Origin: a virus
Taxonomy: Duplodnaviria; Heunggongvirae; Uroviricota; Caudoviricetes
IMG/VR virus record: IMGVR_UViG_3300037423_001636
Span: 1-64,000 of that record
Strand: one strand, 5' to 3'
DNA length: 64,000 bases
The position numbers were made by a program, and so were the translations under genes. Below, in pieces: positions 1 through 60,208 of the stretch. Below the pieces are notes generated by a model. That model ran no database searches, was not told where the DNA came from, and saw only the letters and a list, made by a program, of their open reading frames with translations. How positions within the stretch are numbered: the first letter of the stretch is position 1; each line of letters opens with the position of its first letter.

Positions 1-29
1 TATTCTTCGCGAGCTGCACCGTTGAACGA

Positions 30-254
30 ATGAGCATCGACGACAAAGTTTCTCAGGCCGCTCGGAATCTCTTTCGGCTGGAAAATCCCGACCGTAAGAT
101 GACGGGGAAGCGCAGGCGACGGGCGAGCTATTGGCTTCGGTTGTATAATCGGTATGAGCATCGCCAGCAACGCGAGTTTGCACGACGCGAGCTGTGGCCC
201 GCCATCCTCAAGGCTCTCGACGAGGGCAAAATCCAGTCCGTGACCATCCTTTAA
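30..254 (+). CDS. hypothetical protein
   Basis: 74 aa ORF bounded by junction motifs. Confidence 0.7.
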   Translation: MSIDDKVSQAARNLFRLENPDRKMTGKRRRRASYWLRLYNRYEHRQQREFARRELWPAILKALDEGKIQSVTIL

Positions 255-263
255 CCAGAATGA

Positions 264-530
264 ATGAAAACCGCACCGCTAATCAAACTCCATCGTGACG
301 AGACTTCGGAAATCGCGGGCGATTGCGAAATCTGGGTGAATCCCGCCCATGTCGTCTCTATCGAGCCGCAGAAGGTGCCTAATTCAGAGCCGTGCGCGTC
401 CATCGAAATGACAACCTTCCACTTCACCACGATGGAGAGCTACGCGTGGGTTGTTGAACAACTGACGGGTTACTCCGCCGATGAAGCATTTGGTATGAAA
501 AATTGCTGTAAAGCGAATGAACAGCTATGA
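264..530 (+). CDS. hypothetical protein (FlbD-like IWVNPAHVVSI motif)
   Basis: 88 aa ORF; motif resemblance only. Confidence 0.6.
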   Translation: MKTAPLIKLHRDETSEIAGDCEIWVNPAHVVSIEPQKVPNSEPCASIEMTTFHFTTMESYAWVVEQLTGYSADEAFGMKNCCKANEQL

Positions 531-781
531 AAGTTGTAACCGAATGGAAAGACGGCTGTGGTGCGACGCTATTTGAACACACACCGAAGCAACACGACAT
601 GGAGCGTTGGGAGGTTCGCGAACTGGCGGACCAACTCAACGCGCTCGTCGCAGAATGGGACGCCCGCAATCGCATGAAGCGGTTGAGCGATATTCTGGAC
701 CAGCACGCCCAAATTGCCGCCGAAGCTCGCGCGCTCATCCTCAAAGAAATCGCCGGCCTACCGCTCGTGGAGACACGGTGA
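527..781 (+). CDS. hypothetical protein, paralog of 28209-28439
   Basis: shared KRL..I.D.HAQIAAEAR..I / IL.EIAGLP. Confidence 0.75.
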   Translation: MKVVTEWKDGCGATLFEHTPKQHDMERWEVRELADQLNALVAEWDARNRMKRLSDILDQHAQIAAEARALILKEIAGLPLVETR

Positions 782-787
782 ACGAAC

Positions 788-943
788 ATGACTTCCAAGC
801 AGCACGTTTTGAAAAAGTATCCGAAGGCGAAATGCCGCTGGATTCCCGGCTGGGGACTCTACGAGGTAGAGGCGAACGGTCGCTGCCTCGCGACCGGATT
901 CAACGCACCTACGACATGGAAAACTGCCGCGAAGAAACTCTAG
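788..943 (+). CDS. small hypothetical protein (51 aa, MTSKQHVLKKYPKAKC...)
   Basis: translated by hand; fills the gap between two GAACGAA motifs; below the ORF-track cutoff. Confidence 0.7.
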   Translation: MTSKQHVLKKYPKAKCRWIPGWGLYEVEANGRCLATGFNAPTTWKTAAKKL

Positions 944-968
944 GCGAACGAACACTCCTTTCCCACCC

Positions 969-1211
969 ATGGATCACCGAAGCGCTACTCTGAGCAACTT
1001 GCATCACGCCTACGCGCAGACCGACGGCACGTATGCGTTCCCGAACAGTCGCGAAGGCGACATGCTCAAACAGGCGAAAAAGGAAATCGAACAACTCCGC
1101 GCCACGCTTGAAGAATGTCGGACCTGCGTGAACTGCATGACCCTGACCGGAGCGCACAATCGCAGCCATGCGGCCCGCGCTCACCAAGTTATCGACGAAG
1201 CTCTCGGCTAA
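969..1211 (+). CDS. hypothetical protein
   Basis: 80 aa ORF in array. Confidence 0.7.
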   Translation: MDHRSATLSNLHHAYAQTDGTYAFPNSREGDMLKQAKKEIEQLRATLEECRTCVNCMTLTGAHNRSHAARAHQVIDEALG

Positions 1212-1223
1212 CCGGGAACGAAT

Positions 1224-1328
1224 ATGCGCCGCAAACGGAAGTATCTCACCGCGCGCCAATCTCGCGCCCTCGAACGCGCGATCAACAACCTCGTCTACGG
1301 ATGGGGGAAGCGCCGCGCCCGACGTTGA
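1224..1328 (+). CDS. small basic peptide (34 aa, MRRKRKYLTARQSRALE...)
   Basis: translated by hand; lies between two GAACGAA motifs. Confidence 0.6.
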   Translation: MRRKRKYLTARQSRALERAINNLVYGWGKRRARR

Positions 1329-1337
1329 ACGAAACCT

Positions 1338-1511
1338 ATGGGCTCTTACGCATCACACCTTTCCGACCAAATCGCCGCTAAAGACGCGCGCATCGCCGAG
1401 CTTGAGCGCGAGAACGCCGAACTCCGTAAAGCCCTCGAATCGGCTCGCGATCAAATGCAAGACGCGGGGCTCTTCAACGGCCTTGTGGCCTATCACACGC
1501 GCAAAGGGTGA
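1338..1511 (+). CDS. small coiled-coil protein (57 aa)
   Basis: translated by hand: MGSYASHLSDQIAAKDARIAELERENAELRKAL... Confidence 0.65.
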   Translation: MGSYASHLSDQIAAKDARIAELERENAELRKALESARDQMQDAGLFNGLVAYHTRKG

Positions 1512-1515
1512 ACAA

Positions 1516-1683
1516 ATGCTCACAGACCGCGATAAATACACAGTGGAGGTTGCACGAGAAATCGGCGGATGGACCAACCAACAACGTGTCGAGTTTTTTG
1601 ACTACCTCACGGCCAACTTTTGCCGCGACTGCGGATGCGAAAAAGAGCCGGGGTATTCCTGCCACTGCACTAACGACGAGTAG
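1516..1683 (+). CDS. small Cys-rich protein (55 aa)
   Basis: CRDCGC...CHC C-terminus; ATG right after GAACAA. Confidence 0.65.
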   Translation: MLTDRDKYTVEVAREIGGWTNQQRVEFFDYLTANFCRDCGCEKEPGYSCHCTNDE

Positions 1684-1756
1684 AACGAAACCACTTCACC
1701 CCACTTCCAGCTCCAATCTTGTCCGCCGGGACTCCGCCGATCACCAACATTTCCCT

Positions 1757-2839
1757 ATGAAATCGCTCATTACATTCGCTGCGGTGCTATGCACCACACT
1801 GTCCTTTGGACAGACTTCCCATACCAAAGCCCCCTCGGCTTTCGAGCCTGTTCCGTCGCTGCCTGTCAAGGGCTCTATCAATATCGCTTATCGCACCCGC
1901 TCTCAGTCCGATGGCGATAAGCCTAAAGCCGGAGTCACAGATGTTTACACGCTCAACATAAACGTGGCGAATTCTGCTCTATTCAAGGGCACGATCAGCC
2001 ATCTTCCCTACATCCACAATACCGTAACCCCAGATCAGCAGGGCAAGATCACATACGAGCTGGACCTTGATGTCGTCAATCCGGCGCGGCCAGAGCAGAC
2101 CCGGAATGTAGGGAAGATGTTCGGCAGCGCCCCGATCGACAAGATGAACATTTTTCGCTATAGCGACGGTGGGGGTGTCAAGGTTGCGGTGTTCCCCATC
2201 GGTGCGGCCAAGGGATTCGAGTCTCGATTCAATGGACTCGCACTCGCCAAGCCACCAGCCAGTTCTGGAATCGCCCGCCTCAAGCAGGAGGCTGTGAGAC
2301 TGGTCTCCAGTAAAGGCGGCGCAATCGTGTTGACGAAATACGACAAGATGAGTTTCGAGCAGCACGTGCTCCCGGCTGGCCCCGTTCAAATTTATCCGGA
2401 AACCACGGTAACTGGTATACTATTCTACGATTATGGTCGTTCTGCGTGGCATTTCAACAACGTCACTCTTCTCTACAACGCTGAAGGTCGCCGCGCCGTT
2501 GACACACTCACCGGTTCTATCCGTTGGATTGAAGCGCCGAATCGCAAATCTACGGGTGAAGGTCACTACGAATTCAACATCAATCTGAACGAGCCGCCGC
2601 CGACCGAGAGTGCGGTGTTCGGGGCGGTCGCTGACGAAAGCAGTTTCTTCGCGTCTGATGAAGCCATTCCTAGTCTAACGGGGGCGATCAACTACAAGGA
2701 TACTATCACTCCTGACGGGACCGTCACGGCATCAGTCGTTCAGATTGATCTGAAGGGGAATAAGCTGAGCAAGCAGCAGGTAATGGCTCTATCCAAGCTT
2801 TTATTTCTCAGCGCCCTTGTGCCGATAAACGCAGAATAG
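1757..2839 (+). CDS. secreted/periplasmic beta-rich protein of unknown function
   Basis: probable start MKSLITFAAVLCTTLSFG reads as a signal peptide; 360 aa. Confidence 0.75.
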   Translation: MKSLITFAAVLCTTLSFGQTSHTKAPSAFEPVPSLPVKGSINIAYRTRSQSDGDKPKAGVTDVYTLNINVANSALFKGTISHLPYIHNTVTPDQQGKITYELDLDVVNPARPEQTRNVGKMFGSAPIDKMNIFRYSDGGGVKVAVFPIGAAKGFESRFNGLALAKPPASSGIARLKQEAVRLVSSKGGAIVLTKYDKMSFEQHVLPAGPVQIYPETTVTGILFYDYGRSAWHFNNVTLLYNAEGRRAVDTLTGSIRWIEAPNRKSTGEGHYEFNINLNEPPPTESAVFGAVADESSFFASDEAIPSLTGAINYKDTITPDGTVTASVVQIDLKGNKLSKQQVMALSKLLFLSALVPINAE

Positions 2840-4718: not shown

Positions 4719-5000
4719 ATGAACCCGTTCGAATCATTGTTCACCGATCTAGTTGTCAGCACCCTCGTCGCCAAAGTTGCGACTCTACCTCCGGATAAAC
4801 AGGAGGATGCCATCATGGATATTATCGGGCAGTATCTCGTCGTGATGAGCGTTGAAAAGATTACGGAGCTGCGCCAGATGATCGTGAAAGAGTATGGCGA
4901 GCATTCTGATTTTCCACTTGTGGTGAAAGTGCTGGAGCTGATGGATGGACATGTGGCGCTCCGTGAGATGGCCTCAACGACCGAGCCGACTCAATCATAA
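4719..5000 (+). CDS. hypothetical protein
   Basis: 93 aa, overlapping stop/start chain. Confidence 0.65.
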   Translation: MNPFESLFTDLVVSTLVAKVATLPPDKQEDAIMDIIGQYLVVMSVEKITELRQMIVKEYGEHSDFPLVVKVLELMDGHVALREMASTTEPTQS

Positions 5001-11339: not shown

Positions 11340-11717
11340 ATGAACCGCTTATCCTTTCTCAAGACAGCTATCACAACGACACTCATCGTCCCAGTCGCTC
11401 GTTTATTCAGCCAGACTAAGGTCGTTCCAAAGCCCGAAACCAACATCCTCACTCGGATCAATCAGGAATTGACTTTATGGAGGAGGGTTCATTTGGAATT
11501 GGTTGGAGGCACTCCAGCTTTTCCTGACGCCACGATACTTGCCATAGGCAGAAAGGAATTAGCCGAGGTTAAGGAGCTGGCAACGAAATCGATTCCCGTG
11601 CCACGACCAGACATACAAGACATTCCAGACGAGCTGCTTCCGCCGACACTTGAGCCCCATTTCTATGGACTCGTAATCGTGAAGCTTCCAGTAGACTCGT
11701 TTTTGCGGGTTTATTGA
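11340..11717 (+). CDS. hypothetical protein with degenerate Tat-like signal
   Basis: MNRLSFLKTA. Confidence 0.6.
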   Translation: MNRLSFLKTAITTTLIVPVARLFSQTKVVPKPETNILTRINQELTLWRRVHLELVGGTPAFPDATILAIGRKELAEVKELATKSIPVPRPDIQDIPDELLPPTLEPHFYGLVIVKLPVDSFLRVY

Positions 11718-12005
11718 TGTCTCAAGCCTCCCGAGAGCGCGAACGTCAGCGTAGACTAGCCGCCATCGCAGCTTCCAGCCGCCCGCGCAATCCCACTGGA
11801 CCAGAAATCCGGGGTGAACGTGGCCACATCAAACAGCCTCCTCTATCCAATGAGGAATGGATGATTCTACGCAATTGGCAAGCCGCTCAGATGAAGGAAT
11901 ATATGGATACGCCCGCCGCCGCAGCGAACCGCACGCACTTTCATCTTGACTTTGACGCCGGCACTCTGCTAGAGTCCATTCCTGCAATCACTCCACCCGA
12001 ACTTT

Positions 12006-26381: not shown

Positions 26382-26700
26382 CAACATCTCAATCCAGCGT
26401 AGGGCGAAGTCCCTATTGCGCCGAAAGCGCGAATCTGCTATATTCTGCTCACGATGAATCCCAAAAACACCATTCGAGTCACTCTCGCCTACAATCCAAA
26501 TGCCGGCGCTCTTGGGCGGTCTGAAAAGACACCTTATCAAATCACCAAGATTGTTGGTGCAGTCCGAACGAGCGCCAAAAACTCTCACGTGGGCGACTAT
26601 CTCACGGAGAATGAGGCTGTCTACCTGTCTATGGCAGCGGACACTGAGGTCACAGTTGTGCCGGCGAAAGGCTGACGGCCAATTCACATCCCCTCTTCAC

Positions 26701-28194: not shown

Positions 28195-28208
28195 CCGGAA
28201 CGAAAATC

Positions 28209-28439
28209 ATGGACACTGCAACACTTCGACCCTCCGCAGTTGCGGCATTTAACGCCTTCGCTGAGGCACTGTCAGGCGAGCCCGAGATTAAGCGGCTGAC
28301 CGGCATTATTGACCGGCACGCCCAAATCGCAGCCGAAGCTCGCGTGCTCATTCACAACGGCGGCGCTGGCCCGAACAATGCCCAACTGCGGCGCGTGGAT
28401 TACATCCTCAGAGAAATCGCCGGTCTACCGCGCGAGTAA
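28209..28439 (+). CDS. hypothetical protein, paralog of 527-781
   Basis: shared C-terminal half plus 18 extra codons. Confidence 0.75.
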   Translation: MDTATLRPSAVAAFNAFAEALSGEPEIKRLTGIIDRHAQIAAEARVLIHNGGAGPNNAQLRRVDYILREIAGLPRE

Positions 28440-28450
28440 CATCGAACGAA

Positions 28451-28612
28451 ATGGACCCGTTTAAGCCTACTCTCCCAAAGATTCGCTGCCGATTTTGCAA
28501 AAGACTCGTCGGCGTATTTATCCCGGCCGGCGGCGATGGTTCCGCGTGGCTGTTTCGCAAACACAATATCAACCGGGGCGTCGTCTGCAAAGGCACACGG
28601 CGCGAAGCTTGA
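28451..28612 (+). CDS. small Cys/His protein (53 aa)
   Basis: translated by hand: MDPFKPTLPKIRCRFCKR...HN...C.GT; between motifs. Confidence 0.65.
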   Translation: MDPFKPTLPKIRCRFCKRLVGVFIPAGGDGSAWLFRKHNINRGVVCKGTRREA

Positions 28613-28622
28613 GAACGAAACC

Positions 28623-28790
28623 ATGCCTACCGACACTGAAATACTGAACTGGCTCGCGCTCCGACTTGAGAAAGTTGGCTGGACCGAGCTGGAGCTAGAC
28701 ATCGAAGCGGAGCGCGACGACTGCTCCGACAACTTCGGCGATGATTTTCGCCGTGCCGTCGCAAACGCGATGAAGGTCAACCCCAACTGA
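28623..28790 (+). CDS. small protein with TDTEILNWL...FRRAV motif
   Basis: between motifs. Confidence 0.7.
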   Translation: MPTDTEILNWLALRLEKVGWTELELDIEAERDDCSDNFGDDFRRAVANAMKVNPN

Positions 28791-28806
28791 CGGAACGAAA
28801 CCACCC

Positions 28807-29049
28807 ATGCCTAACGACATTCCTTTAGTTCGACTTAGCCGCGACTACACGCAATGCGGCCTTTCGGCAAAGGCCCGAAACAATGCCGTGCGTGATGCCC
28901 ACTGGGTCACAGCCTCTCCGCATGAGTGGGTTTGGACGCCGGAGCAGCAAGCCAACATGGCGCGCTACGTTCTATGGGCATCGCAACGACTCGAAGCCAT
29001 CCGGCAACTTGCGGCGGCCACGCCGCTGCTCCACGAGCCGAAAACCTGA
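28807..29049 (+). CDS. hypothetical protein
   Basis: between motifs. Confidence 0.7.
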   Translation: MPNDIPLVRLSRDYTQCGLSAKARNNAVRDAHWVTASPHEWVWTPEQQANMARYVLWASQRLEAIRQLAAATPLLHEPKT

Positions 29050-29069
29050 ACGAAACTTAAAGGCAGCCG

Positions 29070-29504
29070 ATGAATCCAACGCGACTAGGCATTAATAAAT
29101 GCGGAACCGGCCTCTGGGCATCTGAGCCAGTTCGCCGTCAGACATACGCCGAAGTTGAGTGGGTGACTTGGGACAAGGCGAAACCGTTCACAAGTAAGCT
29201 CTCTGCCGAGGATGTAATCCGAGGTTGCAATTTGCAGGACTGTGAAGTTTTACCGCTCGCAGACCCGAATCCCCGACCGCGCCTGAGCGAAACGACTATG
29301 GACAACGATACAGCCAAGGAAGCCGACCGCCGACTTTTGCGCATGAAGGCGCTTTACCATACTTGCATGTCGCAGGCGTGCTTTCGGCGCGAAGAAGCGG
29401 CGAAGGAAACCGAGGTTGACGAAGCGACCGCACTGCGGCGCGAGGCAACCGTGTTCGAGGAGTGTGCGGGCTGGCTCAAGGCCGCAACCGACGACTGCCG
29501 CTAA
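29070..29504 (+). CDS. hypothetical protein, possibly two fused micro-genes
   Basis: internal degenerate motif followed by ATG at 29298. Confidence 0.6.
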   Translation: MNPTRLGINKCGTGLWASEPVRRQTYAEVEWVTWDKAKPFTSKLSAEDVIRGCNLQDCEVLPLADPNPRPRLSETTMDNDTAKEADRRLLRMKALYHTCMSQACFRREEAAKETEVDEATALRREATVFEECAGWLKAATDDCR

Positions 29505-29515
29505 ACGGAAAATCT

Positions 29516-29707
29516 ATGCTCAACCCAACTGCCACTCCCGAGCCTTCCGCGACTGTGCATCGCGTTCATTTCGTCATTCCCGACGCCACAGACGATCCTG
29601 AATTGGAGACGCTTTCTGTGATGATGCAGGCACTGAACTGGAAGCTTAAGGGCGACCTGCCCGCGAAGCGCCGTATCGTAGATTACCTGCGCAGCCGTCT
29701 GGAGTGA
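29516..29707 (+). CDS. hypothetical protein
   Basis: between motifs. Confidence 0.65.
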   Translation: MLNPTATPEPSATVHRVHFVIPDATDDPELETLSVMMQALNWKLKGDLPAKRRIVDYLRSRLE

Positions 29708-29727
29708 GAACAAAGAAGCGTTTTGTG

Positions 29728-30081
29728 ATGAAGACGAATCTCATTATGTCTGCGAAATCGGCGGCGGCGTTGATCGATGAGCTAATAATCGCCGCTCCGG
29801 AAATTCGTGGGGCGGGTATCTGCCGCAAGCTGCTCGCGCGCTTGGATAGATTTGACGACCGCAAGCTGAAGGCAGCTATTGCCACTACAAGCCGATTAGA
29901 ACGAAGCTCTCGGCAGAAAAGAAACGTGATGCACTACACGACACCAACCACAGACGACAACATAGACCAGCGGGTGGAAGAGTGGCACGCGATCATCCCG
30001 AGCACCGTGCCGCTCCACGAGTGGCTAGGACTGACATGGGAACAATACGCCCGCTGGGGCGAGACGAACAAGCTGGGTTGA
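29728..30081 (+). CDS. hypothetical protein, possibly two fused micro-genes
   Basis: internal GAACGAA at 29899; C-terminal LHEWLGLTWEQYARW domain. Confidence 0.6.
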   Translation: MKTNLIMSAKSAAALIDELIIAAPEIRGAGICRKLLARLDRFDDRKLKAAIATTSRLERSSRQKRNVMHYTTPTTDDNIDQRVEEWHAIIPSTVPLHEWLGLTWEQYARWGETNKLG

Positions 30082-30090
30082 ACGAAAACG

Positions 30091-30495
30091 ATGAGCGACC
30101 ACAACGAGCGCGCCTGCACCTACTGCGGAAGTTTCCTGCACCATGAATCTGCGTGCCCACAGCGCGAAAAATCTATGAGCAACACACCCCGCACTGATGC
30201 AGTTTACGCGAAGGTTCTCGAATCAAACGAGGGCCACGCTGACGACCTAATTACTCTGGTTAACTTCACTCGCGGCCTTGAGCGCGAGCTGACGGCGCAA
30301 ATCGAAGGGCACAAGCTGACGGCAAAAGAGGCGTCGGAAGCCGCCGTGCTGCGCGCCGCTGATCGCAAACTACGCGCCGCCTTGGAGGACGCGGCAAAGA
30401 GCTGGGAAAAGGAAGCCGCCGACACCAACTGGAACGGCCACATCCGCTCCACCTACGACTCGTGCGCGAAAGACCTTCGCGAATTGCTACGCTGA
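30091..30495 (+). CDS. hypothetical protein (Zn knuckle fused to MSNTPRTDA-type coiled coil)
   Basis: internal start MSNTPRTDA. Confidence 0.65.
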   Translation: MSDHNERACTYCGSFLHHESACPQREKSMSNTPRTDAVYAKVLESNEGHADDLITLVNFTRGLERELTAQIEGHKLTAKEASEAAVLRAADRKLRAALEDAAKSWEKEAADTNWNGHIRSTYDSCAKDLRELLR

Positions 30496-30504
30496 GAACG
30501 AACC

Positions 30505-30831
30505 ATGCCTACCACGAAAAAGCGGAAGCCGATTTCAAACCGGGAGCTGAACGGGCTCATGCACGACGCGATGCTGCACCAACTCCTCGACCAGCTTGGA
30601 GCGCCGAAAGAACAGAGCGGCGGCGTGCTATCGCCATTTGGCCGGCTGCGGCGAATCGCGCCGGCACTTCTCGCGGACAAGGCGCGCATGGACTGGCTCT
30701 GCAAATTCACCGAGTTCCGGTTCCGCGTCTATGACTCGAAGGAGCGGAAATTCCTCACGGAGAACTTGGCGCAGGGCGTCGTCATCCGCCCCGTCGTTGA
30801 TGCCGCGATGGCGAAGTATCCCAACCCCTGA
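30505..30831 (+). CDS. hypothetical protein with DKARMDWL...DAAM motif
   Basis: between motifs. Confidence 0.7.
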   Translation: MPTTKKRKPISNRELNGLMHDAMLHQLLDQLGAPKEQSGGVLSPFGRLRRIAPALLADKARMDWLCKFTEFRFRVYDSKERKFLTENLAQGVVIRPVVDAAMAKYPNP

Positions 30832-30839
30832 GAACGAAA

Positions 30840-30995
30840 ATGCTCTGGAAATTCATCCATAATCGCTGCTGGTTCGGATTCTGGTGGGCGTCGATTTGCT
30901 CAGCTCACTACCACAACGATTCGAAGTGCTCGCGTTGTCGGTCTGGTTATTGGACACGCACCAATTCACCGCGCCTTTTTGGGCGCAAAAGATAG
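30840..30995 (+). CDS. small Cys/Trp-rich protein (51 aa)
   Basis: translated by hand: MLWKFIHNRCWFGFWWASICSAH...C..C..G.W. Confidence 0.6.
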   Translation: MLWKFIHNRCWFGFWWASICSAHYHNDSKCSRCRSGYWTRTNSPRLFGRKR

Positions 30996-31009
30996 CGAAC
31001 GAGTCTCCC

Positions 31010-31210
31010 ATGAAAATCGACCTACTGCCGTTCACCATCCCCAACTTTGTGCGTATGGCATCGAAGCCGGGTCTGCGCCAAGAGGGATTTAAGGAATCGC
31101 CAGCGTTTCCGTTGGCTGACGTTCCAGCGGAAGACCTCGCCGCGCTCTGCGACCAATTCCGCGCCGACGTGTTTGCGAAGGCAGGCAAGCCGGACCCCGC
31201 GAAGAAATAG
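31010..31210 (+). CDS. small phage protein
   Basis: PFTIPNFV...LCDQFRADVFAKAGK.DP. Confidence 0.7.
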   Translation: MKIDLLPFTIPNFVRMASKPGLRQEGFKESPAFPLADVPAEDLAALCDQFRADVFAKAGKPDPAKK

Positions 31211-31218
31211 GCGAACGA

Positions 31219-31434
31219 ATGCACGACGCCGAACAGTTCACCTCCGCCGCGTGGCAATCACTCAAGCAGCAATGCTGCGTGAATCCAGAGACCGCCGTGC
31301 GCTGCGTCATGGTTTCCGAAGAAGCCTTTCGCGCAGCTATGGAAAAGGTTCTCCGCGAACGCGCGGACTCTAATGAGGAAGAGTGCGGAGGTAGAAGGCC
31401 GCCTGCCAAAGGAAACGAAGGACAGGTGGATTGA
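31219..31434 (+). CDS. hypothetical protein
   Basis: last gene of array 2. Confidence 0.55.
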   Translation: MHDAEQFTSAAWQSLKQQCCVNPETAVRCVMVSEEAFRAAMEKVLRERADSNEEECGGRRPPAKGNEGQVD

Positions 31435-31545: not shown

Positions 31546-31908
31546 ATGAACCAAGAACGACGCAATTCGCTTACGAATGCCGAAAAAGCCCTCGACAAGC
31601 TCCTCTCCCCAGAAGTGCTGGCAGCAATCGCGCTCGTACAGAATACGGCTGAAAAGCTGACCGAGTTGAAAGACAGTGTGTCCGAAATCCGCGACGCAGA
31701 GCAGGAGTCATATGATAACATGCCTGAGTCCCTGCAACAGACCGAACGCGGCCAAAATTCGTCGTCCGCCATTGAGGCGCTAGACGAAGCAGTGGACGAA
31801 CTCGACAATGCTGAAACCAGCTTGCAAAGTCTTGCCGCAACACTGGACGAAGTGCGAGAAAAGATCGATCAAGCAGTCGGGGCATTGTCGAATGCGGGCT
31901 CTTACTGA
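31546..31908 (+). CDS. helical-bundle phage protein
   Basis: EQESYDNMPESLQ..ERG; boxed promoter. Confidence 0.75.
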   Translation: MNQERRNSLTNAEKALDKLLSPEVLAAIALVQNTAEKLTELKDSVSEIRDAEQESYDNMPESLQQTERGQNSSSAIEALDEAVDELDNAETSLQSLAATLDEVREKIDQAVGALSNAGSY

Positions 31909-31925
31909 TTCAGAGAATTTCTTAC

Positions 31926-32408
31926 ATGAAACCATTCCTAGTCAGAACCACTGAAGACTGGCAAGACCTCCCAGCCGGCTCTGGCGTGTGGGTGGAGCGC
32001 ATCAACAAACGCACTTACCGAGGCACATGGTCCTACAACGCCGCCAGTATGCTCGTTACCATCCCTAAGAACATCTGCGAGCGGCCACGTGATGCGCGCA
32101 AGCGTGTTCCGAAACACGTACCCCGCATCGTGGAAGACATTCGGGATCAAAAAACAGGGCAACGCCCGCTGATCCGCCGCTGTTTATGCAAGCACCTGAA
32201 CGGTACGTGGAGTTGGAATGCGATCGTATTTCAGAATGCTCCGGTCAGCCGCGCCATGACCAATCGCGGGTTTATCGAACTGGCATGCTGTCGCATCGAG
32301 CCTCGAAACGCAGACTCTACGCATGACACAAAAGCCGAAGCTGAGAAAGAGCTGAATCGTGTGCTTAAAGTCCTCGGTCTACACAAAGCTGCGGCTCCGG
32401 CCCCGTGA
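31926..32408 (+). CDS. hypothetical protein
   Basis: 160 aa ORF. Confidence 0.6.
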   Translation: MKPFLVRTTEDWQDLPAGSGVWVERINKRTYRGTWSYNAASMLVTIPKNICERPRDARKRVPKHVPRIVEDIRDQKTGQRPLIRRCLCKHLNGTWSWNAIVFQNAPVSRAMTNRGFIELACCRIEPRNADSTHDTKAEAEKELNRVLKVLGLHKAAAPAP

Positions 32409-32749
32409 AGACTTCGACCACTAACGACCGCGGCGAAATCGTAAACGGTCATCTATTGTTGACTGGTAGTGATACCGTCATATTCCTTCCCCACCGCGAT
32501 AGGTTTGGACCGAATCGGATTGCCTTTCAATCTGCTGAAATCAAGATAAGTAACGAAGCGATTACCGTGCTTGGTTACATCAATACGGGGGATAGAGATT
32601 CTGAAGGCAGAGAGCTATTCATTCGAGTGGAAAAAGCGTTCTATCTGCCATCCACAAAAGACTGAGGCCCAACGACAGCGGGCCGGCGGCAAGCATTTGG
32701 GGTATTTCCCCTATGGACAAGTAGGTCTGGAACTGATAGGATGTTGCGC

Positions 32750-33100
32750 ATGAAGACTACTTCACTTATCCGCCCCGCATCGCTCATCCGAGGTCTGCTG
32801 CTCGCCGCAATCCTCTGCGCATCATCTGTTTGCCCCAGCGCCCGCGCCCTGCCAAGCGAGCCATTACCAGAGATCGTATCTGCAACATCAACGAATATCA
32901 TCTTCTACGTCTACGGACTGTTCTATGGCCGGGATGTGGGTGACGCGTATACCGCGCAGCATATACGCACGAAGCGCGATTTGGCTCGCGGCTATCGTGA
33001 TATTGCTCGGATGTTCATGGATTCTGGACCAGCGTTCTCCTATTTCTGGGGCGTGGCCGACGGGCTGGACGAGGCAGCGAACCTGCGGGGGGAGCCCTGA
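32750..33100 (+). CDS. secreted hypothetical protein (leaderless)
   Basis: signal peptide ending in ARA; boxed promoter. Confidence 0.65.
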   Translation: MKTTSLIRPASLIRGLLLAAILCASSVCPSARALPSEPLPEIVSATSTNIIFYVYGLFYGRDVGDAYTAQHIRTKRDLARGYRDIARMFMDSGPAFSYFWGVADGLDEAANLRGEP

Positions 33101-42625: not shown

Positions 42626-42699
42626 GCGGGGATAGCTCAATTGGTAGAGCACGTCTAAACATGGCGTGGATAGAGGTTCGAATCCTTTTCCCTGCACCA
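42626..42699 (+). tRNA. atypical tRNA (apparent anticodon AAC, Val-like; A33; position 26 missing)
   Basis: GCGGGGA/TCCCTGC-A-CCA, GCTC-AATTGGTA-GAGC, ACGTC-TAAACAT-GGCGT, AGAGG-TTCGAAT-CCTTT. Confidence 0.75.
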
Positions 42700-59011: not shown

Positions 59012-59317
59012 GTGTGTCAAACCCACACCGCCGTGCTTCTTGGCATCGCAGCAGAGTTATCCGCCCCACCCTCCAGCCCGACCAGCTTTCGGGAATTAAC
59101 AATGATTGCCAAAGCCGTGCGCGGCTACGATGTGATCGCAATTAGTCCCGAAGAAATGGTGAGTCTATACGCTAAGTGGTTTAGAGTATACGGGCTATTT
59201 GATTACGTAGACGATATCCTGAAACCCGGAGAAGAGGAGCTGACGGTCGAAGTTGATGGCGGACCCGGAGCGCGGCTCACCGTTCACAACGTGCAGATTG
59301 TGATTGGTCTTATTTAG
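59012..59317 (+). CDS. hypothetical protein
   Basis: GTG start after GTGTAATT motif. Confidence 0.55.
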   Translation: MCQTHTAVLLGIAAELSAPPSSPTSFRELTMIAKAVRGYDVIAISPEEMVSLYAKWFRVYGLFDYVDDILKPGEEELTVEVDGGPGARLTVHNVQIVIGLI

Positions 59318-59876
59318 ATTCGTAGGCTTCCCACAGCCGTCGAACGTCTCGGTGGAACCTCAGATGAGCCCGCTGATATGTGGACCCAAGTCTCGCCGCG
59401 ATCTGGTAGAAGCTCATGCCATCTCGCACGCGCCAGTCGAAAACCCGCCGGTCAGCTCGGTTGAGCGTGTTTCTAAAGTCTTCTATATCAGAAGGTGGCC
59501 AAGATTGGTCGTCCACAATATCTGGCTCCACTACCGTAATCTCCTCACCCCAACGGCTAGTCTGCACGACCTTCGTCCTTATCGGTCGCGCTAGCAACAG
59601 ATTGGTGCGCCAGCGGTGGCTCTTGACCCCGCGGGCCGGAAGACTACGACGCAGCGAGTTGAAGACGGAGTTGCGGACTATTGTAAATACCCAACTAAAC
59701 AGCTTGCCGCGATCTTTATCGAACTGGCCGCGCTTCTCAAACACGCGAATAATGGCTTCAGAGCGGATATCTTCCCATTCTTGGGACGGCAGTTTTACAT
59801 CGAGTAGCCGGCGTTGCATGGCACCGAAACAACGGGCAGCCATGGAAAACAGCTCTTGATCGTTTGTGCTGCTCAT
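59310..59876 (-). CDS. sigma-70/ECF-like RNA polymerase sigma factor
   Basis: region 2 EDIRSEA.IRVF....FD..RG...SW...IVRN; region 4 L...DRRVF......GMS..QIA..LG. Confidence 0.8.
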   Translation of the reverse strand: MSSTNDQELFSMAARCFGAMQRRLLDVKLPSQEWEDIRSEAIIRVFEKRGQFDKDRGKLFSWVFTIVRNSVFNSLRRSLPARGVKSHRWRTNLLLARPIRTKVVQTSRWGEEITVVEPDIVDDQSWPPSDIEDFRNTLNRADRRVFDWRVRDGMSFYQIAARLGSTYQRAHLRFHRDVRRLWEAYESK

Positions 59877-60208
59877 GCGCCACTCTTCTTCACCAGCTTG
59901 GCAAACCATGTGATGTTCTCGCAGCACCAGTTCCAGTAGCCCGCGTCATGCTTCTTGACCCAATCCCACTCTTTATTTTTGTGCTTCCCAAATGACATGA
60001 CCCGCTTTCCTCCAGCCGTGATCGGCGTAGCGCTCCCCGTTCCTTTCAACGCTTCCTCTGCCGTGATACGCTCCACTCCATTCTTACCTTCTTTTAAATC
60101 TTCAGCAGTAATCCTCGGCCCCTTTTTCCACTCGTCTGACTTCGGGCGCGCTTTGTCGGCCATGAATAGCCGAGCGGATTCACGGGCGGCTGGGTGGAGG
60201 TCAGGCAT
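59873..60208 (-). CDS. protein with ExoX C-terminal/DUF3820-like motif
   Basis: MSFGKHK.K....V...D.GY..W. Confidence 0.6.
   Translation of the reverse strand: MPDLHPAARESARLFMADKARPKSDEWKKGPRITAEDLKEGKNGVERITAEEALKGTGSATPITAGGKRVMSFGKHKNKEWDWVKKHDAGYWNWCCENITWFAKLVKKSGA

Follow-up and report, generated by a model that had tools for sequence, protein, structure and literature searches.

A stop-anchored GAACGAA linker between phage micro-genes and its possible role in translational reinitiation

A 205-kb uncultured phage strings together ten tiny, unrelated genes by means of the seven-letter word GAACGAA, which is placed right after each stop codon. Three other phage genomes, two of them unrelated, carry the same arrangement, so that the word represents a real and previously undescribed gene-joining signal, most likely one that allows ribosomes to carry on to the next gene, although this functional reading is inferred from sequence alone and remains tentative.

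The array at the start of the window

The window, i.e. the whole 64,000-nt stretch that was analysed, starts a siphophage genome that is circular at 205,041 bp, as the last 127 bp of the contig repeat its first 127 bp. An earlier note had described nine consecutive junctions with GAACGAA, GAATGAA or GAACAAA between positions 24 and 1689, delimiting eight ORFs of 34–88 aa, of which three were absent from the ORF track and one was mis-started. This observation is confirmed: all nine words are present at these places on the plus strand (Table 1). With a cut-off of 60 aa, the 51-, 34- and 57-aa genes vanish, while the 55-aa gene appears as the tail of a 171-aa ORF (1168–1683). Shuffled sequences give 12.5 exact copies of GAACGAA per 64 kb on both strands, which corresponds to about 0.17 expected copies on one strand of 1.7 kb, whereas six are seen (Poisson estimate, P about 2e-8).

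As the note had stated, the pattern stops at 1689, and its suggestion that the array continues upstream of the window also holds. The array wraps the contig junction, with two more units at genome positions 204587–205041, comprising GAACGAA at 204587, GAATGAA at 204910 and genes of 101 and 48 aa. The complete array 1 thus has 11 motif sites (genome 204587 to window 1689) and 10 genes of 34–101 aa.

Table 1. Features of the two GAACGAA arrays in the window (window coordinates).
Position	Strand	Feature	Remarks
1..25	+	3' end of 48-aa gene	begins at genome 204920, before the contig junction (ORF L001:14921-15067); TGA stop at 23-25 overlaps the motif
24..30	+	GAACGAA linker	TGAACGAATG; stop, motif and start overlap
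30..254	+	micro-gene, 74 aa	no family match
258..264	+	GAATGAA variant linker	3 nt after the TAA stop; its last A starts the ATG; a further GAATGAA overlaps at 262
264..530	+	micro-gene, 88 aa	five homologs in the 1.8-billion-protein library, so a real protein family
515..521	+	GAATGAA variant	5 nt before the ATG at 527 but inside the 3' end of the preceding gene, whose stop overlaps the next ATG (ATGA at 527-530); the one array site not anchored to a stop
527..781	+	micro-gene, 84 aa	paralog of array-2 gene 28209-28439 and of a G007 array gene
780..786	+	GAACGAA linker	TGAACGAAcATG
788..943	+	micro-gene, 51 aa	
946..952	+	GAACGAA linker	2 nt after TAG; 16-nt C-rich leader to the ATG
969..1211	+	micro-gene, 80 aa	
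1216..1222	+	GAACGAA linker	4 nt after TAA
1224..1328	+	micro-gene, 34 aa	basic
1327..1333	+	GAACGAA linker	TGAACGAAacctATG
1338..1511	+	micro-gene, 57 aa	coiled-coil-like
1510..1516	+	GAACAAA variant linker	TGAACAAATG
1516..1683	+	micro-gene, 55 aa	Cys-rich C-terminus
1683..1689	+	terminal GAACGAA	TAGAACGAA; after the last micro-gene
1690..1756	+	67-nt C-rich leader	no ATG; runs from the last motif to the next gene
1757..2839	+	resident downstream gene, 360 aa	signal-peptide-like N-terminus; no family; no promoter or SD of its own
28198..31219	+	second GAACGAA array (array 2), 12 sites	promoter-distal part of an operon driven by the dyad-promoter module at 26400

Genome-wide distribution and occurrence in other phages

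Genome-wide, GAACGAA is the commonest 7-mer in stop/start junction context, and 15 of its 17 such sites lie in the two arrays. The possibility, set beforehand as a refuting condition, that the word is equally frequent at all gene junctions or inside genes is therefore not borne out, although 14 sense-strand copies lie inside other genes with no clear sign of avoidance. Only one paralogous gene pair is shared between the two arrays, which are thus not duplicates of each other.

A distant relative, referred to as G007 (TerL 33 % identical), has a GAACGAA array at the locus orthologous to array 1, with its gene content fully replaced. One gene is 70 % identical between array 2 and the G007 array, and its DNA homology starts and ends at the motifs. 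In addition, two complete small temperate phages, G057 and G058, share no proteins with each other, with the phage studied here or with G007, yet carry the same kind of arrays. The first motif in these phages sits at the stop of a resident gene, namely terS in G058 and an intI-like gene in G057.

The interpretation offered in the note was partly supported. Its view that two arrays with the same punctuation argue for a mechanism rather than a local duplication agrees with the single shared gene pair, the array-specificity of the word and its recurrence in three other phage genomes with different genes. In contrast, the promoter and recombinase that the note proposed to look for upstream found no support: there is no array-specific promoter, and neither this phage nor G007 encodes a tyrosine recombinase (no PF00589 match). 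As attC-like sites are likewise absent, an integron-like cassette system in this genome is not shown, but the recombination idea stays alive as a rival because of the integrase in G057 (see below).

Architecture of the junctions

In the five arrays, all 55 of 55 sites are on the sense strand. The motif begins −2 to +5 nt from the end of the upstream stop in 51 of 55 sites (sd 2.7), while the distance to the next ATG runs from −1 to 106 nt (median 6 nt, IQR 1–13.5), with many sites overlapping the ATG or lying within 4 nt of it and about a third of the leaders being 12–106 nt long. In most junctions, stop and ATG are within about 30 nt of each other. Nearly all starts are ATG, and no ATG occurs in 699 nt of motif-to-start leaders, against about 10 expected from array composition and about 7 at the rate of non-array spacers. 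This count is partly biased by the way in which starts were defined; with that bias allowed for, P is about 0.007.

No promoter- or terminator-like site was found inside array 1. No sigma-70-like promoter lies upstream of or within it either, while an attI cannot be recognised by sequence alone. Array 2 and the G007 array lie between dyad-promoter modules. A trailing motif occurs exactly where the next gene has no promoter of its own (array 1, G007, G057) and is absent where a promoter module follows (array 2). The motif is predicted to be more single-stranded than its surroundings and is not part of a hairpin. SD-like cores precede only about 15–25 % of genes in all four phages, but a real AAGGAG is used before the capsid-region genes of this phage. 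Other operons of the same phage couple genes without the word, by ATGA/TGATG overlaps.

A possible signal for termination-reinitiation

The best, albeit tentative, explanation is that GAACGAA is an RNA-level intercistronic signal read by host machinery, most likely the ribosome. Located immediately after the stop codon of one small gene, it would let the terminating ribosome stay on the mRNA, move downstream and reinitiate at the first AUG. In this way, accessory genes without promoter or SD placed deep inside long operons would be translated. Because every unit ends in the same word, it may also act as a common boundary at which such genes are gained, lost and exchanged. The position, strand and stop-anchoring of the motif, its conservation across unrelated phages, the absence of SD pairing, hairpins, promoters and attC sites, and the first-AUG rule are established by the sequence analysis, whereas the ribosome as reader, the event of termination-reinitiation and the dependence of downstream translation on a ribosome terminating upstream are inferred, in the absence of expression data. 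The restriction of the word to junctions of promoter-less genes, its constant sense orientation, its anchoring to the stop, the first-AUG rule, the trailing motif before genes without a promoter of their own, its persistence while the genes turn over, its predicted single-strandedness, the low share of genes with SD-like cores and the lack of a shared phage protein that could serve as reader all speak for this view. Against it stand the existence of overlap-coupled operons without the word and the lack of complementarity to 16S or 23S rRNA beyond chance, for which E. coli had to serve as proxy for an unidentified host, leaving the ribosome without an evident way of reading the word. Moreover, the stop-anchored layout of N genes flanked by N+1 motifs would equally fit a cassette at the DNA level, and one array abuts an integron-type integrase.

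A bolder and rather unlikely version, which the data nevertheless leave possible, is that GAACGAA is a previously unknown, host-read licence for reinitiation in bacteria, a prokaryotic counterpart of viral TURBS elements that keeps the terminating ribosome on the mRNA so that it scans to the first AUG. It would double as the common currency of a pool of micro-gene cassettes circulating among unrelated phages of one host group, in one case beside an integron-type integrase.

How genes without SD sequences are translated inside operons is an open question for many bacterial phyla and their phages, and a short sequence-specific signal that is tied to the stop codon and shared by unrelated phages would make it directly testable. 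The word also gives a simple rule for finding unannotated micro-genes, several of which fall below a usual cut-off of 60 aa in this array, and marks where phage accessory genes, often anti-defence or host-takeover genes, are swapped. The integrase next to one array raises the question of whether a hairpin-less cassette system exists.

Alternative explanations

Conceivably, although less likely, GAACGAA could be a DNA-level boundary, i.e. the crossover or core site at which cassettes of leader, ORF, stop and motif are inserted, excised and swapped by a host- or phage-encoded recombinase or by short-homology recombination, following an integron-like logic without attC hairpins. This is supported by the N+1 motifs that flank N cassettes in all five arrays, by the position of the first motif at the stop of a resident gene and of the last, which can be followed by the resident gene's own long leader of 67–106 nt, by the complete gene turnover at an orthologous locus with the motif kept, by the shared cassette bounded by motifs, and by the recurrence of the word in unrelated phages. 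Furthermore, the G057 array directly follows a recombinase that scores above the curated cut-off of the integron-integrase family (TIGR02249, 273 vs 265 bits) and whose best solved relative is VchIntI4 (2A3V, E 2e-46), and the G058 array ends 14 nt before a XerC/D-like recombinase gene. However, the phage studied here and G007 lack any tyrosine recombinase, seven bases are too few for known site-specific recombinases or for efficient homologous recombination, and the variants GAATGAA, GAACAAA and GGACGAA are tolerated. Integrases next to small early genes are normal in temperate phages, and gene-sized homology blocks would end at gene borders anyway. A pure DNA role also predicts neither the ATG depletion in the leaders nor the strict sense orientation.

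Somewhat less likely still is the other main rival, an RNA processing site, at which a host endoribonuclease would cut the polycistronic early transcript to release monocistronic, near-leaderless mRNAs like those from the many leaderless promoter modules of the phage, which expresses about 30 early genes from promoters placed so that the start codon is at or near +1. The short median gap to the ATG, the lack of ATG between motif and start, the predicted accessibility of the motif, the intact upstream ORF left by a cut just after the stop and the need for a host-encoded reader are in line with this idea, but no RNase is known to have this specificity, the 14 copies inside other genes are not clearly avoided, about a third of the leaders are too long to be leaderless, and the phage has no MazF/PemK-type gene. 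An operator for a phage-encoded translational regulator or nuclease, like T4 RegA or RegB, that would switch off the micro-gene class together is very unlikely. While the word marks one class of small accessory genes, lies in the translation initiation region of most of them and is predicted to be single-stranded, the three carrier lineages share no detectable protein, no anti-motif RNA was found (only one intergenic TTCGTTC in this phage and none in G007), and anchoring to the stop is unexpected for an initiation-site operator. Finally, an ordinary SD site or a chance or duplication artefact is refuted for practical purposes. Although the motif lies between stop and start, where ribosome-binding sites lie, its best duplex with the last 30 nt of E. 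coli 16S rRNA is −1.3 to −1.8 kcal/mol, there is no UUYGUUY site in E. coli 16S or 23S rRNA, and shuffled words pair as well with 16S rRNA in 188 of 300 trials. The variable gap to the start does not fit the SD spacing of about 5–10 nt, the genes are unrelated, and the motif is enriched far above shuffles. A −35 element of the phage's sigma factor was rejected because no conserved −10 follows and the ATG is too close, and a role for a T7-type RNA polymerase of the phage was rejected as well.

Comparison with known systems

In bacterial translational coupling by termination-reinitiation or 70S scanning, as in the TURBS-type reinitiation of caliciviruses and influenza B, the downstream cistron has no promoter or SD of its own, its start lies shortly after the upstream stop, the first AUG is used and a short sequence near the stop is associated with the event. 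The GAACGAA junctions share the missing promoter and SD, the closeness of stop and start, the inferred use of the first AUG and the short sequence near the stop. However, bacterial coupling normally relies on an overlap or an SD rather than a fixed non-SD 7-mer after the stop, and TURBS lies upstream of the stop and pairs with 18S rRNA, while no rRNA pairing was found here.

The start-associated sequences (SAS) of Cluster K mycobacteriophages (Pope et al. 2011, PMC3203893) are also short asymmetric repeats in one orientation only, confined to non-structural genes of different families, next to ATG starts and sometimes containing the upstream stop; their function is unproven, with a role in translation proposed. 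GAACGAA agrees in its single orientation, the unrelated genes and the ATG starts. Yet, SAS are 13-bp repeats of the GGGATAGGAGCCC type that contain the SD core AGGAG, sit 3–7 bp before the start and are confined to one phage cluster, whereas GAACGAA has 7 nt and no SD core, is anchored to the stop and occurs in unrelated phages.

PeSL (promoter-early stem-loop) cassettes of T4-type phages (Arbiol et al. 2010, PMC2839356) are likewise repeated regulatory units between small non-essential genes in hyperplastic regions, at which gene content turns over between relatives. A PeSL consists of a sigma-70 promoter plus a terminator hairpin, while the GAACGAA junctions have neither and are 7–30 nt in all; in this phage, the PeSL-like role is played by the separate dyad-promoter modules.

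Integron arrays are likewise co-oriented rows of small promoter-less ORFs with a boundary element right after each stop and N+1 boundaries for N cassettes. Nevertheless, no recurrent inverted repeats were found in array 1 or the G057 array, stop-to-start spacers are only about 4–30 nt in most junctions compared to attC sites of 55–140 bp (imperfect inverted repeats with RYYYAAC ... GTTRRRY cores), and no core-pair candidates were found in this phage or G057 on either strand. An integron integrase adjoins the array only in G057, where it is co-directional and upstream rather than divergent with an attI between.

Searches for related genes and further arrays

The 84-aa gene has no homolog among 5.8 billion proteins. 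The 101-aa gene has one 74 %-identical homolog on a 1.5-kb contig, and a metagenome protein scan found nothing further. Searches with the 360-aa downstream gene and with single-sequence TerL returned no viral relatives. Close TerL relatives in IMG/VR are short structural-region fragments without arrays, while contigs of 180–210 kb carry TerL 50–62 % identical to that of this phage. No cultured relatives that could identify the host were found, and the hits among genome contigs are binned MAG contigs. Beyond the 7-mer there is no extended consensus, as only sites 1683 and 201113 share GAACGAAnCCACTTC.

Two scans of viral collections and one of metagenomes for three motifs in a row gave only noise, namely a CRISPR array, (GAAC)n microsatellites, tandem repeats and in-frame Asn-Glu or Met-Asn-Glu-Arg codons, whereas a third viral scan with other spacings was successful.

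Genome and extent of the array

The window covers the first 64 kb of a single contig of 205,168 bp, whose last 127 bp are identical to its first 127 bp. This is an assembly overlap, and the genome is hence a 205,041-bp circle or terminally redundant unit. IMG/VR classes it as a virus record with direct terminal repeats and 100% completeness. It encodes a large terminase, a 1,944-aa tape-measure protein, a J-type tail fibre and a DNA polymerase, and is therefore a jumbo siphophage, for which no cultured relative was found. In addition, it encodes a sigma factor (Sigma70_r2, E 3.6e-9), whose promoters were not identified, and a 502-aa protein with a TROVE (Ro60-like) domain, and ARAGORN calls a tRNA-Val with anticodon AAC, which is unusual for bacteria (see table for coordinates).

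The observation of the earlier note holds, as all nine junction words and all eight ORFs are found where it had placed them. The array continues across the contig junction, where one GAACGAA and one GAATGAA precede two more genes of 101 and 48 aa. In full, array 1 comprises 11 motif sites and 10 genes of 101, 48, 74, 88, 84, 51, 80, 34, 57 and 55 aa, and its last motif is followed by a 67-nt leader that runs to a 360-aa gene. Six exact copies of the motif in 1.7 kb compare with about 0.17 expected from shuffled sequence.

The note had named equal frequency of the motif at all gene junctions, or inside genes, as the outcome that would speak against it. GAACGAA occurs 31 times on the + strand and 25 times on the - strand of the genome. 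Every 7-mer was scored for junction context, defined as an ORF stop within -14 to +3 nt and an ORF-opening ATG within 30 nt. GAACGAA ranks first with 17 such sites, 15 of which lie in array 1 and in the second array of the same genome (array 2), while the other high-ranking 7-mers are plain TGATG overlaps. The sense-strand copies elsewhere lie inside genes, with the exception of two isolated junction-like sites. The word is therefore neither general to all junctions nor random. One of the isolated sites lies 15 nt after a stop and 39 nt before a 64-aa zinc-finger-like gene that has a homolog in the relative G007 (see below), and it shares the extended word GAACGAA-N-CCACTTC...CCAG with the last motif of array 1, both being long-leader sites.

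The interpretation offered in the note is partly supported: its argument that two arrays with the same punctuation point to a mechanism rather than a local duplication holds, but neither an array-specific promoter for array 1 nor a tyrosine recombinase was found in this genome. Array-1 proteins have almost no family matches, and an all-against-all BLAST comparison finds one paralogous pair between the two arrays, with 41% identity. Within this pair, a patch of about 50 nt (GACCrGCACGCCCAAAT...GCTCAT) is about 90% identical at the DNA level, more than in the G007 ortholog, which suggests recent gene conversion between the two arrays. Some of the genes have outside support. The 88-aa protein has five homologs in a library of 1.8 billion proteins and matches a small domain that occurs 5-6 times in tandem in large proteins of 545-1192 aa (P0125, P0128), while the 101-aa protein matches phrog_6851 and has one 74%-identical homolog.

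No sigma-70-like promoter or intrinsic terminator lies in or just before array 1. The roughly 30 dyad-plus-promoter modules with near-leaderless starts that the phage carries are confined to 17-56 kb and bracket array 2, which is the distal part of one long operon. SD-like cores precede only about 16% of genes, yet two capsid-region genes carry AAGGAG or AAGGA. The host thus probably has a normal anti-SD and presumably reads normal SDs, which most phage genes simply lack.

Positions of features discussed in the text (G000, the phage genome under study; G007, IMGVR_UViG_3300045051_000720; G057, IMGVR_UViG_3300020202_000132; L numbers denote extracted loci)
Genome	Position	Strand	Locus position	Feature
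G000	1-127 and 205042-205168			identical contig ends
G000	204587			GAACGAA, array 1, before the contig junction
G000	204606-204911			first gene of array 1
G000	204910			GAATGAA, array 1, before the contig junction
G000	264-530			88-aa array-1 gene
G000	527-781			array-1 member of the paralogous pair
G000	1683			last motif of array 1
G000	1757			start of the 360-aa gene
G000	4719-5000			gene whose homolog flanks the G007 array
G000	28209-28439			array-2 member of the paralogous pair
G000	42626-42699			tRNA-Val (AAC)
G000	59310-59927	-		sigma factor
G000	83129-83155			SD core region and capsid-region gene at 83155
G000	83835-83860			SD core region and capsid-region gene at 83860
G000	163510-165018		L007:510-2015	502-aa TROVE-domain protein
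G000	172888			isolated junction-like GAACGAA
G000	201113		L001:11114	isolated junction-like GAACGAA with extended word
G007	11,660-11,759			recurrence of the final 100 bases of the contig
G007	168042-171786			GAACGAA array
G007	169743-169973			cassette shared with array 2 of G000
G057	31806-32987	-	L512:11806-12987	integron-integrase-family recombinase

Related and unrelated carriers

TerL homologs at 50-62% identity exist on contigs of 180-210 kb. A TerL-profile scan of IMG/VR, followed by motif counts on whole records, identified one carrier, G007 (219 kb, GC 59%, TerL 33% identical), with 11 exact copies of the motif plus variants in the same stop/motif/ATG layout. The final 100 bases of its contig recur further inside, so that the record probably carries about 11.8 kb of terminal redundancy, giving a true unit of about 207.7 kb. 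A whole-proteome comparison shows that G000 and G007 are syntenic. The G007 array lies between the homologs of the first gene of array 1 and of the G000 gene at 4719-5000 and thus occupies the orthologous locus, yet its gene content is entirely different. The one shared cassette is 70% identical to the first gene of array 2 of G000, far above the 30-45% of core genes, and its DNA similarity begins at one motif and ends at the next. G007 also has the dyad-promoter modules, one just upstream of its array and the next after it.

A further pattern scan revealed two more arrays in complete small genomes, G057 (42.6 kb) and G058 (IMGVR_UViG_3300044656_000133, 36.4 kb), both with a GC content of about 61%. 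These share no proteins with each other or with G000 and G007, beyond one or two weak hits, and lack the dyad modules. In G058, the array starts at the stop of terS and ends 14 nt before a XerC/D-like recombinase gene, which is followed by terL. In G057, the first motif of a ten-site micro-gene array overlaps the stop codon of a tyrosine recombinase that scores above the curated cut-off of the integron-integrase family (TIGR02249) and is closest to VchIntI4 among solved structures. A second, convergent recombinase lies on the other side of this array, and no attC sites were found. Because no phage protein is common to the three lineages, the reader of the word is either host machinery or a DNA-level process.

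Anatomy of the junctions

Over 55 sites in five arrays, the motif starts -2 to +5 nt from the end of the preceding stop in 51 sites, often as TGAACGAA. In contrast, the gap to the next start codon is loose (IQR 1-13.5), with leaders of 49, 67, 77, 82 and 106 nt. Every array has N genes flanked by N+1 motifs. In array 1, G007 and G057 the last motif is followed by a long leader to a gene that has no promoter of its own, while array 2 ends without a trailing motif, exactly where a promoter module follows. The leaders are C-rich and G-poor and contain no ATG in 699 nt, where about 10 are expected from array composition and about 7 at the rate seen in the other spacers of the phage. The definition of a start used here biases this count somewhat; if this is allowed for, P is about 0.007.

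The motif is predicted to be less paired than its surroundings, and no hairpins or attC-like repeats were found to accompany it. It does not pair with E. coli 16S or 23S rRNA better than shuffled words, and no complementary small RNA was found. No MazF/PemK, T7-type polymerase or tyrosine recombinase was detected in the phage. A role of the word as a -35-type element for the phage sigma factor is excluded, as the ATG follows at once and nothing conserved follows the word.

Possible function and comparison with described systems

Five properties point to an mRNA signal that acts at termination: the motif is found on the sense strand only, is anchored to the stop, is predicted to be single-stranded, is followed by an AUG-free leader of any length, and is used only where the next gene lacks a promoter. 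In this view, the ribosome that has just finished one micro-gene would be kept on the message and reinitiate at the first AUG. Placement, strand, anchoring and leader composition are read directly from the sequences, whereas the ribosome as reader and reinitiation as the event are inferred, and this reading is favored only tentatively. The same geometry would fit a DNA cassette boundary, which gains from the integron-type integrase in G057 and from the cassette shared between arrays, but loses from the absence of any recombinase in G000 and G007, the absence of attC and the shortness of the site, and is considered less likely. Cleavage at the word to make near-leaderless mRNAs is a further option that appears somewhat less likely still. 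These roles are not mutually exclusive, as a signal needed for expression would automatically become a shared microhomology at every gene border.

In the literature library searched, no paper links GAACGAA to phages. The nearest described motifs are the SAS repeats of Cluster K mycobacteriophages, which are start-anchored and contain an SD core, while PeSL cassettes consist of a promoter plus a hairpin. The array fails the attC and adjoining-integrase criteria of integrons, the defining tests of SD sites and PeSLs, and the sequence and spacing criteria of SAS, although it shares with SAS the single orientation, the unrelated genes and the ATG starts. New here are the wrap-around extent of array 1, the orthologous array in G007, the quantified stop anchoring and the N+1 rule, the first-AUG result, the complete, unrelated temperate carriers, and the integron-type integrase.

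The word also appears in IMGVR_UViG_3300044513_003720 and 3300021425_003897 (L043 and L074) within tandem repeats of about 177 nt, each carrying ...GTGTCCAAG...GAACGAAcaaaaATGTAyGCGGACCCGGAG. This may be a repeated micro-gene or a repeat protein and is unrelated to the arrays described here. A different phage (IMGVR_UViG_3300017958_002304 and kin; L093, L094 and L028) uses another repeated junction word, TGAAAGGCGCrgAnAATG, before several small genes.
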